Positions 1 through 64,000 of a stretch of DNA of 64,000 bases are shown piece after piece. The translations under genes were made by a program, and so were the position numbers. Under the pieces are notes generated by a model. It did not search any database. It was not told the DNA's origin and was given only the letters and a program-made list of their open reading frames with translations. Each line of letters opens with the position of its first letter. Positions within the stretch are counted from its first letter, which is position 1. Source of the stretch: Synergistaceae bacterium (GTDB lineage Bacteria > Synergistota > Synergistia > Synergistales > Aminobacteriaceae); assembly GCA_017444345.1 (NCBI GenBank), contig JAFSWW010000080.1, positions 20,570 to 84,569 on the forward strand, written 5' to 3'.

Positions 1-123
1 AGCAAAAAATTTTTTATTTATTACACAGCGCATAATAAACTATTAATCTTTGCTATAATCTATCTGACTAACTTAATAACTAGAGAAATTATTTCACAAG
101 TTTATAATAAATATAATATAAAA

Positions 124-1059
124 TTGGGAGGCAAAAATTTTTACATCATGGAAGAAAAGAAGACCGTTGCAGCTGCCAGCCGTAAATGGGAAGTAGTTGT
201 ATTTACTCTCGGAAAAGATGCATTTGCTATAAACGTGAACAAGACCCGCGAAATTTTGAGATGGACAGGGTGCCGGCCCATACCGACAAAGACTCCGGCA
301 TTCATAGGAATTACTACGATAAGAGAAGCGACTCTCCCGTTAATTGACCTGCGTATATTTCTAGGAATAGACTCGCCCGTCCCTATTGAACAAACTAAAG
401 TAATGGTCGTTGAATTCAATGATATAAAATTAGGCTTTCTTGTTGACGGAGTAGAGAGAATTAGACAGGTGAACGCCGAAGATTTGGACTCGTCAAAGAT
501 GCGCGGAGTGTCTCTAAAATGGGTCTTGTATATAATTAAACGCGATGAGAGAAATATTTTATTGCTTGACTATGAAGCGATTATACAAGAGACTGCGCCG
601 GCCGTTGCTGAACACATGTTCGATCAAAATAAATTAAGCGTCTACCAGAAACAAATCGGCCACGTTGAAGATTTTCACATTCTTGTTGCTGATGACTCGC
701 CATTATTGAGGCAGCAGACGTGCGACGTGCTGAAACAATCAGGCTTTACGAGCATTTACCCAGTTAAAGACGGAGTCGAGGCTAGAAAATTATTACTTGA
801 TCAGGGCGAAAATTTTGACTTGTTAATTTCAGATATAGAGATGCCATTACTTGACGGATTGAGCTTAGTAGAGACTTTGAGGCAGGACGAGAGAGCGGCG
901 GATTTACCGGTTATATTATTCTCGTCAATCATGGTAAAAGATTTGCTTGACAGGGCCGAGTCGCTGAAGATTATTCACGTGTTAAAGCCGGACGTGTATA
1001 AACTCGTTGAAGAAGTCATGAAAATTTATCAGGATATAAAGCGGCACAGAAATTTTTAA
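124..1059 (+). CDS. cheV: CheV-type chemotaxis coupling protein (CheW-like domain fused to a response-regulator receiver)
   Basis: The N-terminal part looks CheW-like (WEVVVFTLGKDAFAINVNK...IGITTIREATLPLIDL). It is followed by a REC domain (HILVADDSPLL...LLISDIEMPLLDG...PVILFSS). The ATG at 148 is an alternative start. Confidence 0.8.
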   Translation: MGGKNFYIMEEKKTVAAASRKWEVVVFTLGKDAFAINVNKTREILRWTGCRPIPTKTPAFIGITTIREATLPLIDLRIFLGIDSPVPIEQTKVMVVEFNDIKLGFLVDGVERIRQVNAEDLDSSKMRGVSLKWVLYIIKRDERNILLLDYEAIIQETAPAVAEHMFDQNKLSVYQKQIGHVEDFHILVADDSPLLRQQTCDVLKQSGFTSIYPVKDGVEARKLLLDQGENFDLLISDIEMPLLDGLSLVETLRQDERAADLPVILFSSIMVKDLLDRAESLKIIHVLKPDVYKLVEEVMKIYQDIKRHRNF

Positions 1060-1064
1060 GGATT

Positions 1065-1091
1065 CCCCCTGAAATACAGGCACTCAGGGGG
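1065..1091. terminator. Hairpin between convergent genes (possible bidirectional terminator)
   Basis: ccccctga (1065-1072) pairs with tcaggggg (1084-1091), giving an 8-bp GC-rich stem in the 40-nt gap between cheV(+) and the 94-aa ORF(-). The U-tract is weak (gcgcgtttta). Confidence 0.5.
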
Positions 1092-1099
1092 AGCGCGTT

Positions 1100-1384
1100 T
1101 TATTGCAGGTCAAAATTTATTTGGAATGTCATAGAGTTCGAGCCGTCAGAAATGATTAAATTATCGCCCTGTCTTGAAAATGTGAGAGTCCCTCGTTCTG
1201 ATTGTGTTGACGTATCGCCGTTAAGATATTTTTGCGCATGAAACACGAAAAAATCCCGGTCTAGTAATCGCGCTGTGTTGCTTGTCTGATTGGCCATGAA
1301 ATTAAATACTCCCAGCATTAGAATCGAAAAAATTGCCATTGCCGTAATGAATTCTACTAGAGTTTCAGCTTTTAATTTACGCAA
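1100..1384 (-). CDS. Small pseudopilin-like protein with a degenerate class III (prepilin-type) signal
   Basis: The N-terminus is MRKLKAETLVEFITAMAIFSILMLGVF: a basic leader, Glu at the +5-like position (ETLVE), then about 20 hydrophobic residues. The canonical G|F is replaced by A|E. Confidence 0.4.
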   Translation of the reverse strand: MRKLKAETLVEFITAMAIFSILMLGVFNFMANQTSNTARLLDRDFFVFHAQKYLNGDTSTQSERGTLTFSRQGDNLIISDGSNSMTFQINFDLQ

Positions 1385-1390
1385 AATAAA

Positions 1391-61739: not shown

Positions 61740-61847
61740 GAATTAAGCACCTCCGATAAATTTTTTATAAATAAAGCACGAGTCGGCAATAAATAATTTT
61801 TTCTGTAATAATCACATGTGTTGACAAGTTTTATATTTTGCCAGCAA

Positions 61848-61964
61848 GTATAAATTTTTCATGACATAACCCGCGCAATAATAACCGCGTTCAATCTCTA
61901 TATATTTCACAAAATTTTTTGTCAGTAAATATAAATTTTTCATGACATTACCCCGCGCAATTAA
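61848..61964. repeat. Direct repeat of about 35 nt (two copies) upstream of the metal ABC operon
   Basis: gtataaatttttcatgacataacccgcgcaataa (from about 61848) recurs as atataaatttttcatgacattaccccgcgcaattaa (from about 61928). Confidence 0.6.
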
Positions 61965-61993
61965 ATAAATATTTCGCAAAATTTCTCATGTAA

Positions 61994-62860
61994 TTAACGC
62001 CCGCTATATAAAATTTTTCCGGCAATATAGCATATCCCAAACGCTAAAATATCAGCAATTACTATTGTCGAGCCCACAGGAGTCCCCGCTAAAACAGAAA
62101 TTATTATCCCTATGGCCGCACATATAACTGAAATAATCACCGAGAATATAATAACCGCGCGAAAACTTTTAAATATTCTCATGGCAGATAACGCAGGAAA
62201 TACTATCAAAGCTGAAACGAGCAGAGAGCCCGCCAATTTCATAGCAAGGACTATGACAGCAGCCGACATCACAATCGTTAATAAATTGCATAATTGAGTG
62301 TTCACGCCTGAAGATGCCGCAAAATCTTCGTCAAAAGTTACCGCAAAAATTTTGTTATAAAATAATATAAAAGCTAAGACTACAGAAATTGACAATACAG
62401 CACACAGCCAAACTTCTTTAACAGTGAGAGTCAAAATCGACACAGAACCGAATAAAGTCGTGCAGACATCGCCCGAAAGATTTGACGACGACGAAAATAT
62501 ATTCATGAGCATATAACCCCCTGCGAGTGAACCAGCAGAGAGCATAGCAACAGCCGCATCGCCTTTGATAGAAGCATTTGCCCCCGTCCTCAAAAGCATG
62601 ACAGCACATAAAATCGTTACTACAAGAACTACAGGCATATTAAAGCCTATATTCATAGCAGCAGCCGCAGCCAGTGCACCAAAAGCCGCATGTGAAAGTC
62701 CATCGCCTATAAATGAAAATCGCTTTAACACGAGAGTAACTCCCAATAATGACGCACAAATTGAAATCATTATCCCCATGATAAAAGCATATCTCACAAA
62801 TGGGAACTGCCAATAAAGTATAAATTTCTCTATCAAGTTTTCTATTAAATTTTCTAGCAT
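61994..62860 (-). CDS. Metal (Zn/Mn-type) ABC transporter permease, ABC-3 family
   Basis: It is polytopic and ZnuB/TroCD-like (FVRYAFIMGIMISICASLLG, DGLSHAAFG). Confidence 0.85.
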   Translation of the reverse strand: MLENLIENLIEKFILYWQFPFVRYAFIMGIMISICASLLGVTLVLKRFSFIGDGLSHAAFGALAAAAAMNIGFNMPVVLVVTILCAVMLLRTGANASIKGDAAVAMLSAGSLAGGYMLMNIFSSSSNLSGDVCTTLFGSVSILTLTVKEVWLCAVLSISVVLAFILFYNKIFAVTFDEDFAASSGVNTQLCNLLTIVMSAAVIVLAMKLAGSLLVSALIVFPALSAMRIFKSFRAVIIFSVIISVICAAIGIIISVLAGTPVGSTIVIADILAFGICYIAGKILYSGR

Positions 62861-63483
62861 GATTTATCGAGCCTCAATAAATTTTTTGCATATTTCGCGG
62901 CCTTGTCTATATCATGAGAGATCATAATAATAGCAATTTTCTTATCGCGATTTAATTCATTCAGCAATAAATACATTTCTGAAGCTGACTCAGGGTCAAG
63001 ACCTGTTATAGGCTCATCGAGTATTAAAACTTTTTGAGCTGCACACAAAGCACGCGCTAATAGGACTCTTTGCTGCTGACCTCCTGATAATTCGCGGTAA
63101 CATTTGAACTCTAAATCTGAAATCTTCATTTTTTGCATGATCTCAAATGCCGCTATTTTCTCGCGTTTATTATAGAATGGCCGGAGCCCGCACCTTCCTT
63201 GAAAGCCTGATAATACAATTTCACGAACTGAAGCAGGGAAGTCCTTTTGTGATTCTTTTTGCTGGGGAAGATAGCCGATCTCGTTTTTCTTGAGTCCATC
63301 AGTAAAAATTATTCTGCCGCTTAAGGGTTTATTGAGTCCGAGAATAGTTTTTATAAGAGTGCTTTTGCCTGAACCGTTCTCGCCCATAATACATAAATAA
63401 TCGCCTGATTTAACACAAAAATTTAGATTCTTTATGATTACTCGATTGTCCCAGCCTATTGACAAATTTTCACAAGTTATCAT
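62854..63483 (-). CDS. Metal ABC transporter ATP-binding protein
   Basis: It has Walker A GENGSGKST, the signature LSGGQQQR and Walker B LILDEP. Confidence 0.85.
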   Translation of the reverse strand: MITCENLSIGWDNRVIIKNLNFCVKSGDYLCIMGENGSGKSTLIKTILGLNKPLSGRIIFTDGLKKNEIGYLPQQKESQKDFPASVREIVLSGFQGRCGLRPFYNKREKIAAFEIMQKMKISDLEFKCYRELSGGQQQRVLLARALCAAQKVLILDEPITGLDPESASEMYLLLNELNRDKKIAIIMISHDIDKAAKYAKNLLRLDKSC

Positions 63484-64000
63484 TTAATTTAGAGCCTCTT
63501 TCAGGATTTCGAGATTTTCGGCCATGATTTGCAGATAAGAGACTCTGGGATCTCCTGACTGCATAGAATTCAGGACTAAAATTTTTTGATTCTTGGCCTT
63601 AGTGCTTGCTATAACAGTGCGGGCTATGTTGTGCCTTGTACCGTCAATATCTATAACACATGGCAAATTAAACTCGTCTGTCTTCTCTGCTAAAAATTTT
63701 ATGGTCTCAAAGCTCGCTTCAGTCTCAGCAGAACACCCGGAAAAAGCCGCGTAACACTTAAGCCCGTAATCATCAGCTAAATATCTAAACGGGAATCTAT
63801 CAGCAAATAATAAAATTTTCCTAGCTGAGTGATTAATCATGTCAGAATATTTCTTGTCAAGCTCATCGAGTGATTTAATATAACGCGCAAGATTTTGAGA
63901 ATATATTTTTTTGTGAGACGGGTCAATTTCTGAAAGTTTTGCGGCAATATGACGGCAAAGAATCCCCGCATTTCTTAGTGACAGCCATATATGCTCGTCA
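63484..64000 (-). CDS. Metal ABC transporter substrate-binding protein (ZnuA/TroA family), 5'-truncated by the window edge
   Basis: The frame stays open beyond the listed Met. The reverse complement of 63841-64000 reads ...DEHIWLSLRNAG...KYSDMINHS, which is the typical D(P/E)HIW motif. Confidence 0.75.
   Translation of the reverse strand, partial: DEHIWLSLRNAGILCRHIAAKLSEIDPSHKKIYSQNLARYIKSLDELDKKYSDMINHSARKILLFADRFPFRYLADDYGLKCYAAFSGCSAETEASFETIKFLAEKTDEFNLPCVIDIDGTRHNIARTVIASTKAKNQKILVLNSMQSGDPRVSYLQIMAENLEILKEALN

Follow-up and report, generated by a model that had tools for sequence, protein, structure and literature searches.

Over-representation of A-tracts, and of clusters of A-tracts, in prokaryotic genomes is said to have been described in 2005 by Tolstorukov et al. 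in Nucleic Acids Research (NAR). The tracts in excess are A(n)T(m) tracts free of the TpA step (Davenport & Tümmler 2010, PMC2843746; Huang & Mrázek 2014, PMC4060949). Two further systems are close to the one reported here. One is HIP1 (GCGATCGC), a highly iterated palindrome found in cyanobacteria, which is discrete and G+C-rich and for which a periodicity of 10-90 kb is reported (Xu, Lawrence & Durand 2018, PMC5861425). The other is the co-evolution of Bacillus subtilis with its xenogeneic silencer Rok, where rigid A-tracts abound in the resident genome and the flexible words favoured by Rok are strongly depleted (Duan et al. 2018, PMC6212790; PMC8476142). The present analysis concerns a 64,000-nucleotide stretch from a Synergistaceae bacterium, here called the window (positions 20570-84569 of contig C33, in an assembly of 2.33 Mb on 141 contigs with 39.9% G+C), and the genome to which it belongs. 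Throughout this DNA, blocks in which a run of A passes into a run of T, A(n)T(m), occur in great excess, the octamer AAAATTTT being the commonest of them, and blocks of the opposite polarity, T(n)A(m), of which TTTTAAAA is the octamer form, are purged. A literature search returned nothing specific on a AAAATTTT or TTTAAA bias in Synergistota.

The original prediction, made from the letters of this stretch, had located eleven such blocks, all of which are present where it placed them, and had claimed an orientation-specific excess of the octamer in genes and spacers that base composition could not produce. The window holds 73 copies of AAAATTTT, where 100 shuffles that preserve dinucleotides give 10.57±3.03 and never more than 19, TTTTAAAA is absent where the same shuffles expect 8.85±2.68, and the hexamers AAATTT and TTTAAA number 252 and 34, respectively. 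The 73 sites are divided between coding DNA (44 sites, 0.78/kb) and spacers (29 sites, 3.94/kb); as predicted, blocks lie within genes in all three frames, in spacers and next to start codons. Across the genome the octamer occurs 2983 times (1.3 per kb) against a Bernoulli expectation of 155, an excess of 19x that places it first among all 65,536 8-mers, and TTTTAAAA, with 34 copies, is the rarest of the 256 A/T-only 8-mers, giving an asymmetry of 88:1; AAATTT stands at 5.5x its Bernoulli expectation. Markov expectations for genomic AAAATTTT rise slowly with order (433 at order 1, 716 at order 3 and 2010 at order 5), so that the underlying dependence must be cooperative and of long range.

Codon usage and protein sequence were considered as causes and are ruled out by three kinds of shuffle together with a bias that is equal or stronger in spacers. 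Coding DNA holds 2025 copies of AAAATTTT, compared with 800±18 after synonymous shuffling (2.5x), 1182±20 when the shuffle also preserves codon-junction dinucleotides, and 288±17 after codon permutation (7x), the observed count exceeding all controls; of TTTTAAAA, coding DNA has 19 copies, where these three controls give 163, 126 and 219, respectively. The prediction was to be given up if enrichment proved no greater than that of the reverse word or of codon-shuffled controls, and it stands because these controls reproduce neither the AAAATTTT nor the TTTTAAAA count. All three codon phases are used (927, 575 and 523 coding sites), and the octamer reaches 24x Bernoulli in genomic spacers (3.4/kb) and 16x in coding DNA (0.97/kb), from which it follows that the bias acts on DNA and not on protein. 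Its imprint on the proteins is nevertheless visible: relative to expectation the codon pair AAA-TTT stands at 1.72x and AAG-TTT at 0.17x, TTT-AAA at 0.51x and TTC-AAG at 3.3x, and the dipeptide KF (1.38) differs nearly twofold from FK (0.74). Synonymous codon choice and residue order both serve the A→T pattern, and the bias is shown to be independent of composition, codon usage and protein sequence.

The palindromic octamer of the original prediction is hyper-abundant as claimed, but it is not a discrete motif. Variants shifted by one position are nearly as common (AAAAATTT 2515 and AAATTTTT 2465), the maximal-order Markov ratio of AAAATTTT is 1.02, and among blocks of at least 8 bp the genome holds 6227 of the form A(n)T(m) and 330 of the form T(n)A(m), 158 of the former in the window. 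Each extension by one base multiplies A(n)T(m) by 1.15-1.2 and T(n)A(m) by 0.72-0.84 relative to maximal-order Markov expectation, up to 7 bp, after which the effect saturates; the share of A-runs that end in T grows from 46% for a single A to 82% for A6, and AAATTT is preceded by A in 56% of cases. Blocks interrupted by a single C or G share in the enrichment (AAAASTTTT, ~5x). The object is thus a graded family of TpA-free A(n)T(m) blocks of which AAAATTTT is only the modal member. A repeat family, a miniature inverted-repeat transposable element or any other discrete motif is ruled out by the flanks, a frequency matrix of ~2980 sites showing no structure further out than ±2 bases and no 20-mer around the octamer recurring more than 3 times. 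General avoidance of TpA is likewise ruled out, as TATATA, ATATAT and TATAAT are not depleted but 1.3-1.7x commoner here than in related genomes without the T→A purge (described below).

Several compositional features accompany the block family. Homopolymer runs meet a ceiling, with genomic counts of 4490 for A5, 1969 for A6, 477 for A7 and 64 for A8, and AAAAAAAA and TTTTTTTT fall under Bernoulli expectation while A5 stands at 1.8x. Weak (A/T) and strong (C/G) bases are also segregated, GC (1.42) and CG (1.27) both being over-represented and AC/GT (0.72) being the lowest dinucleotide; AAAC/GTTT is under-represented as well. Taken together, A/T-only 8-mers reach 2.9x expectation here and 4.2x in non-purging congeners.

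The source organism belongs to the uncultured rumen bacteria of a Fretibacterium-like genus within Synergistota, a placement that follows from the type II secretion ATPase encoded in the window. This protein is 100% identical to one from a red-deer rumen metagenome-assembled genome (MAG) labelled 'uncultured Synergistales'; it shares 90-95% identity with its counterparts in many rumen MAGs of 'Fretibacterium sp.' and Synergistaceae and 84% with that of Fretibacterium fastidiosum. Relatives were surveyed by a pattern search over 268 Synergistota genomes, comprising 48 congeners and 220 genomes outside the genus; congener DNA was sampled, for example as 324 kb pooled from four congeners that lack the T→A purge and 164 kb from congener G086. 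The genus shows a very large compositional shift over a small protein distance, with ~36% to ~52% G+C among the sampled congeners and >60% in Fretibacterium MAGs whose secretion ATPase is ~90% identical.

The relatives carry the same bias, as the original prediction had proposed to check: the ratio of AAAATTTT to TTTTAAAA exceeds 10 in 41 of the 48 congeners and in only 5 of the 220 Synergistota outside the genus, where it is usually 0.3-3. The two words are about equally frequent in E. coli K-12 (135 and 126), and in pooled lower-G+C Synergistota from outside the genus AAATTT and TTTAAA each stand at 0.96x Bernoulli. Within the genus, the octamer is the top 8-mer in the four pooled non-purging congeners (AAAATTTT 370, TTTTAAAA 125) and in G086 (119 and 0), though not in the GC-richer G072, and 8-mers that contain AAATTT have about the same density here as in the non-purging congeners (ratios near 1). 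The A→T excess is a genus-specific trait shared by all 48 congeners. The single asymmetry of the original prediction is therefore real at 88:1 but composite, being the product of this genus-wide excess, which alone gives ~3:1, and a separate loss of T→A words that varies between clades.

That loss is graded by tract length. Relative to the density in non-purging congeners, this genome holds TTTAA at 0.37, TTTAAA at 0.17, TTTTAA at 0.20, TTTTAAA at 0.07 and TTTTAAAA at 0.04. The depletion depends on the flanks, CTTTAAAG (1.06) not being depleted, ATTTAAAT standing at 0.21 and TTTTAAAA at the value just given, and it extends to words that do not contain TTTAAA, including TTTTAAT (0.21) and TTAAAAA (0.15). 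Tracts interrupted by C or G are purged as well: TTTSAAA falls to 0.21-0.28 of non-purging density, and T4SA4 stands at 0.34x Bernoulli here compared with 2.5-7x in congeners. The purge acts equally in genes and spacers. Mis-binned contigs were considered as a source of the residual TTTAAA and are ruled out by its even spread (per-5-kb counts with mean 2.46 and variance 2.88). The same rule holds more strongly in G072 (52% G+C), where TTTAA stands at 0.20, TTTAAA at 0.04, TTTSAA at 0.2 and TTTSAAA at 0.02; TTSAA remains at 1.1x in both G072 and this genome, which rules out avoidance of an AgsI-type TTSAA site.

Purge traits were mapped on a secretin tree of 43 congeners from per-genome TTTAAA/AAATTT and TTTSAAA/AAASTTT counts. 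The broad purge is absent from two of three basal pairs, the third (G104/G112) showing a sharp loss of TTTAAA only, and is likewise absent from a clade of 11 genomes in which TTTAAA alone is lost (ratios 0.001-0.42); it is strongest (0.01-0.2) in most of a clade of 21 genomes and reaches ~100-fold in G072, G073, G080, G085 and G088. This genome shares with G100, G076, G075 and G081 a constant intermediate state (TTTAAA/AAATTT 0.10-0.20; TTTSAAA/AAASTTT 0.25-0.48), and because the ratios are equal across deep branches the intermediate state looks like an equilibrium rather than a transient. As separate observations, T-tract→A-tract pairs become enriched once 3-4 C or G bases intervene (T4S4A4, 6.6x), and TTTGCGAAA with its complement TTTCGCAAA, at 141 occurrences, accounts for most of the T3-S3-A3 words.

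Blocks take preferred positions relative to genes and to one another. Around starts they peak at -25 (just upstream of the Shine-Dalgarno sequence), at -7 (between the Shine-Dalgarno sequence and the start codon) and at +9, the last corresponding to codons 3-4 (M-x-K-F), and a further peak lies directly past stop codons (TAAATTT). The curved-DNA aspect of the original prediction, helical phasing at 10-11 bp, is not borne out: A→T junctions avoid one another below 15 bp, with pairs at 9-11 bp at 0.13-0.5x expectation, and their spacing follows a damped oscillation of ~19.5 bp with peaks at 19-20, 35-41 and 54-60 bp, spectral power being 11.1 at 19.5 bp and 2.2 at 10.5 bp. Curvature phasing of tract pairs past the first half-turn is rejected also, neither the A..T nor the T..A gap functions oscillating at 10.5 bp. 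The ~19.5 bp oscillation is alike in all three distance classes modulo 3. Translation-start architecture as the origin of the 19-20 and 34-35 bp peaks is partly true, but the spacing persists when the first 300 nt are removed.

Spacing was compared with controls in long open reading frames (ORFs) from which these first 300 nt had been removed, using 60 shuffles per control. Junction pairs at 6-12 bp stand at 0.46, against 0.86±0.045 after synonymous shuffling (0/60 as low) and 1.05 after codon permutation, and the exclusion at this range is therefore made by codon choice. The contrast between peaks and troughs is 0.17, compared with 0.006±0.067 after codon permutation (0/60 as high). Deep in the ORFs of G072 the periodic power is 3010 against 650±502 in synonymous shuffles (0/200 as high), the peaks reaching ~3-5x and the troughs falling close to zero. 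The following features of the window illustrate these arrangements:

1..64000, whole window: excess of A(n)T(m) and purge of T(n)A(m), from block and word counts.
4..15: A6T6 block, which together with 16929-16940 represents the longest block class in the window.
3345..3355: A5T6 block in spacer DNA that separates two minus-strand genes; a further block lies at 3397-3405.
5714..6018: five clustered AAAATTTT sites in a 1-kb spacer that precedes the gene starting at 6114; a 32-nt direct repeat (5837-5868 / 5935-5966) holds two of the five.
18139..18149: A5T6 block in the spacer past the gene at 17197-18072.
20326..20352: pair of AAAATTTT blocks 19 bp apart within an ORF, an example of the preferred ~19 bp spacing.
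29233..29592: six AAAATTTT sites in a divergent spacer with repeated 'TATAAAAATTTTTG'-like modules and a T-run abutting TTG; the last block is just upstream of a Shine-Dalgarno sequence and ATG at ~29600-29615.
55230..55272: three A→T junctions (55234, 55251 and 55268) in 17-bp steps, spanning the boundary (55169-55172) of two overlapping ORFs.
57303..57314: A5T7 block in the spacer ahead of the gene starting at 57377.

In the spacers at 29340-29600 and 5700-6020 the blocks form the basis of repeated modules, in several of which a T-run abuts TTG, and these look like stacked promoter or UP-element-like modules. A secretin/ATPase/pseudopilin locus resembling a type II secretion system or type IV pilus (T2SS/T4P-like) occupies 37.3-50.6 kb of the window. 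Rfam and tRNA scans found no RNA genes in the window.

Of the three suggestions made in the original prediction, namely nucleoid architecture or NAP binding, a methylation- or restriction-related motif, and a DNA-uptake-type signal, the first is favoured, though with no reader protein found. The explanation put forward here, tentatively and at somewhat short of an even chance, is that selection on local DNA shape, acting through a putative reader, maintains the pattern. A and T bases would be gathered into A(n)T(m) blocks of 6-12 bp that lack TpA and in which the minor groove would narrow toward the central ApT step, and a T-tract followed by an A-tract, with a wide and flexible junction, would be counter-selected according to tract length even with a C or G at the junction. 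Each block may act as a footprint unit, with further blocks discouraged closer than ~15 bp and slightly preferred at distances of ~19-20 bp and multiples of this. An architectural DNA-binding factor might read the shape, the one HU of the genome and a small protein yet to be discovered being candidates, or else the response might be that of the supercoiled fibre itself. Spacers use such blocks at fixed places, namely upstream of the Shine-Dalgarno sequence, between it and the start codon, and directly past stops. That selection rather than mutation maintains the pattern, and that a protein reads it, we infer; selection is favoured because of the long-range dependence, the enrichment of interrupted blocks, the exclusion zone and register, and the clade-wise purge of up to 100-fold. 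An extended version credits the genus with a lineage-specific 'DNA shape code', in which blocks with a footprint of ~15 bp are set in a ~19 bp register, T→A polarity is forbidden and the reader is a nucleoid or defence protein yet to be discovered; this version is more speculative and, as it stands, unlikely.

One HU gene is present in the genome, as in nearly all congeners whatever their purge state, and HU copy number shows no correlation with purge state among the congeners. Four congeners (G082, G094, G110 and G113) have 2-3 HU-family matches where the others have one; with an estimated contamination of 3-5%, the extra copies may be foreign.

A number of results weigh against selection on shape. 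The search of this genome for an H-NS-like protein, as suggested in the original prediction, gave no match to H-NS (PF00816), Lsr2 (PF11774) or the histone fold (PF00808); Rok and MvaT were not searched for. No 10-11 bp phasing appeared in any data set examined, and classical macroscopic curvature is therefore not produced. The periodicity in this genome is weak, with an amplitude of ±15%, and comes mostly from residue order: the peak-trough contrast of 0.17 does not differ significantly from the 0.10±0.05 of synonymous shuffles (8/60 as high), so the register here is mostly written in the order of residues. The stronger signal of G072 is carried by few pairs (~18 at the peak and 2 in the trough). 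Block density follows the local A+T content (r = -0.55 with GC) and rises 4x in spacers, behaviour that a pattern driven by mutation would show too. Every genome compared is a MAG.

Silent-site conservation belongs on the same side. This genome and G076 are 82% identical in nucleotide sequence, and the proportion of silent A/T third positions that are identical between them falls from 0.90 in blocks of at least 8 bp to 0.82 where blocks measure 6-7 bp, 0.70 in the remaining A/T runs and 0.61 at all other such positions; AAA codons diverge by 5.4% within blocks and 17% outside, and overall silent sites within blocks diverge 3-4x less than other silent A/T sites. Such conservation might have been taken as proof of selection, but it is not decisive. 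The context bias itself (96% AAA before TTT) predicts ~3.9% divergence at saturation compared with the 5.4% observed, and because the divergence of silent sites in blocks is about that predicted at equilibrium it does not discriminate between selection and mutation.

Context-dependent mutation during A+T enrichment is a serious rival as the sole cause, though on balance doubtful. Under this explanation the genus drifted from high to low G+C, changes from C/G to A/T being preferred where A-runs and T-runs meet, so that blocks grow and perfect themselves, and T→A junctions are hypermutable or are not created, with no selection involved. It is favoured by the link with genomic and local A+T, by the higher density of blocks in spacers and by AC/GT being the most depleted dinucleotide, with AAAC/GTTT depleted beside it. 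The clade spans ~36% to >60% G+C at protein identities of at least 90%, and enrichment is ~0.8-3x in most congeners of ~47-52% G+C (up to 6x) and 3.5-9x in the A+T-rich ones; the equilibrium divergence of silent sites in blocks agrees as well. However, the dependence spans 3-4 bases on each side of the junction, far beyond the usual context effects of ±1-2 bases, and the ~5x enrichment of AAAASTTTT is unexpected if such sequences are hypermutable precursors. Mutation predicts neither an exclusion below 15 bp brought about by synonymous choice nor a spacing of ~19 bp, nor a 100-fold purge of TTTSAAA in some clades with none in their sister clades, and other Synergistota at similar G+C are without the bias.

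A role in distinguishing self from non-self is unlikely, without being far-fetched. In this case the T-tract→A-tract would be the preferred target of a lineage-specific xenogeneic silencer or a shape-reading defence nuclease and would be purged by the resident genome, the A→T blocks serving as a safe carrier of A/T-rich codons and signals. Such a target would fit the purge observed, which is graded as binding affinity would be, tolerates a central C or G, is as strong in genes as in spacers and passes down clades that have gained or lost it; Rok-bearing Bacillus genomes provide a precedent (PMC6212790, PMC8476142). Word avoidance in the genus is moreover very heavy and varies between species, and so indicates strong defence pressure on sequence. 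On the other hand, the H-NS and Lsr2 searches that came back empty leave this genome without either silencer (Rok and MvaT lying outside those searches), and the TpA-rich words that silencers prefer, TATATA, ATATAT and TATAAT, are the very ones found undepleted above. The non-purging congeners also carry an equal A→T excess, which is therefore not a by-product of the purge.

A restriction-modification footprint, left by a DraI/AhaIII-type system that is present or was recently lost, is very unlikely in this genome. DraI and AhaIII recognize TTTAAA, and what avoidance of such a site looks like is seen in G086, where TTTAAA occurs once in 164 kb against 146 expected, the table of T(n)A(m) counts is empty exactly where n and m are both at least 3, and TTTSAAA is raised. 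G117 is similar, with 12 TTTAAA and 8424 AAATTT, and the patchy ratios of the 11-genome clade, from 0.001 to 0.42, fit the same cause. The restriction-related suggestion of the original prediction consequently explains the loss of TTTAAA in some congeners but not here, where depletion depends on the flanks, leaving CTTTAAAG untouched, reaches words without TTTAAA and is spread evenly over contigs. The 'ghost' of a lost TTTAAA system is unlikely also, since recovery from a G086-type state would leave TTTSAAA raised and not lowered, and the intermediate ratios are equal across deep branches. Such a footprint would in any case leave the A→T excess unexplained.

Avoidance of other words was observed in passing. 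Observed against expected counts in this genome are 3/147 for GGCGCC, 15/333 for CCTAGG, 18/333 for GACGTC and 51/757 for AAGCTT, GTGAC/GTCAC occurs 134-170 times against ~1650 and CCWGG 67-82 times against ~1000, and GAGTC/GACTC, evidently avoided by four congeners, is 5-9x commoner here than in those four. These word counts suggest that the genus holds many restriction-modification specificities with rapid turnover.

An uptake signal or orphan-methyltransferase motif, with molecular drive multiplying AAAATTTT or a shorter core (RAATTY, for instance), perhaps in connection with the T2SS/T4P-like locus of the window, is hardly credible: the density of 1.3 per kb is within the range of known uptake sequences and the secretin/ATPase/pseudopilin genes are at hand, but there is no defined word, shifted variants being nearly as common as the octamer, the flanks carry no information beyond ±2 bases, no 20-mer with the octamer exceeds three copies, and the preference for A 5′ of AAATTT reaches past any RAATTY core, leaving the uptake and discrete-methylation suggestions of the original prediction without support.

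If selection on local DNA shape is the cause, the genus constitutes a natural experiment in which one rule is set at strengths from zero to ~100-fold across 48 congeners, and a phylogenetic association scan could identify the reader of A/T-tract polarity, a question open since the first descriptions of A-tract excess and HIP1. If the pattern is instead mutational, it is among the longest-range context effects known in bacteria. In either case the skewed dipeptides (KF and FK) and codon pairs matter for codon-usage models, gene prediction and the binning of rumen MAGs, and the words form a strong signature that differs between species.

Among known systems, uptake sequences (uptake signal sequences, USS, and DNA uptake sequences, DUS) are matched in density only, the blocks offering no fixed motif of 9-10 bp or longer whose flanks carry information. 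Restriction-site avoidance is resembled in that several congeners are almost without TTTAAA and show a sharp word boundary; loss of an exact word irrespective of its flanks is found in G086, whereas in this genome the loss is graded, flank-dependent and extended to words without TTTAAA, and the A→T excess has no place in such a system. HIP1 is alike in being a palindromic octamer that is the commonest word, occurs in all frames and in spacers, constrains codon choice and is shared within a lineage, and for which a role in chromosome or nucleoid structure is suspected. Unlike HIP1, which is a discrete word with sharp edges, AAAATTTT is the mode of a sliding C/G-free A(n)T(m) family spaced at ~19 bp and does not stand clear of its shifted neighbours (2983 compared with 2515 and 2465).

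Rok-bearing Bacillus genomes are the best mechanistic precedent. The combination of A-tract enrichment with depletion of flexible A/T words is found here too, A→T standing at 19x and T→A words at 0.04-0.4 of their non-purging density, but the purged class is the T-tract→A-tract and not words with multiple TpA steps, AACTA or TACTA, and H-NS and Lsr2, which were searched for, are absent (Rok and MvaT were not part of that search). The nearest class is the A-tract excess of bacteria, with which the pattern shares TpA-free tracts in excess of composition in coding and non-coding DNA, and a reading as nucleoid packaging or NAP binding. The excess that defines A-tract clusters (n+m of at least 4, coding and non-coding, beyond composition) is present, but in place of helical phasing at 10-12 bp there is exclusion below 15 bp and a spacing of ~19.5 bp. 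Magnitude differs as well, the top 8-mer at 19x Bernoulli here comparing with ~2x in E. coli K-12, where AAAATTTT and TTTTAAAA are about equal. The preferred object is the block with an A→T junction and not the pure A-run, A8 and T8 being below expectation and runs of at least 7 sharply cut, and the graded purge of T-tract→A-tract, including its C/G-interrupted forms, sets this genome apart from the A-tract class. The finding accordingly counts as a variant of the known A-tract phenomenon, to which it adds its magnitude, its rule of polarity, the register of 19 bp and the purge of T→A words.

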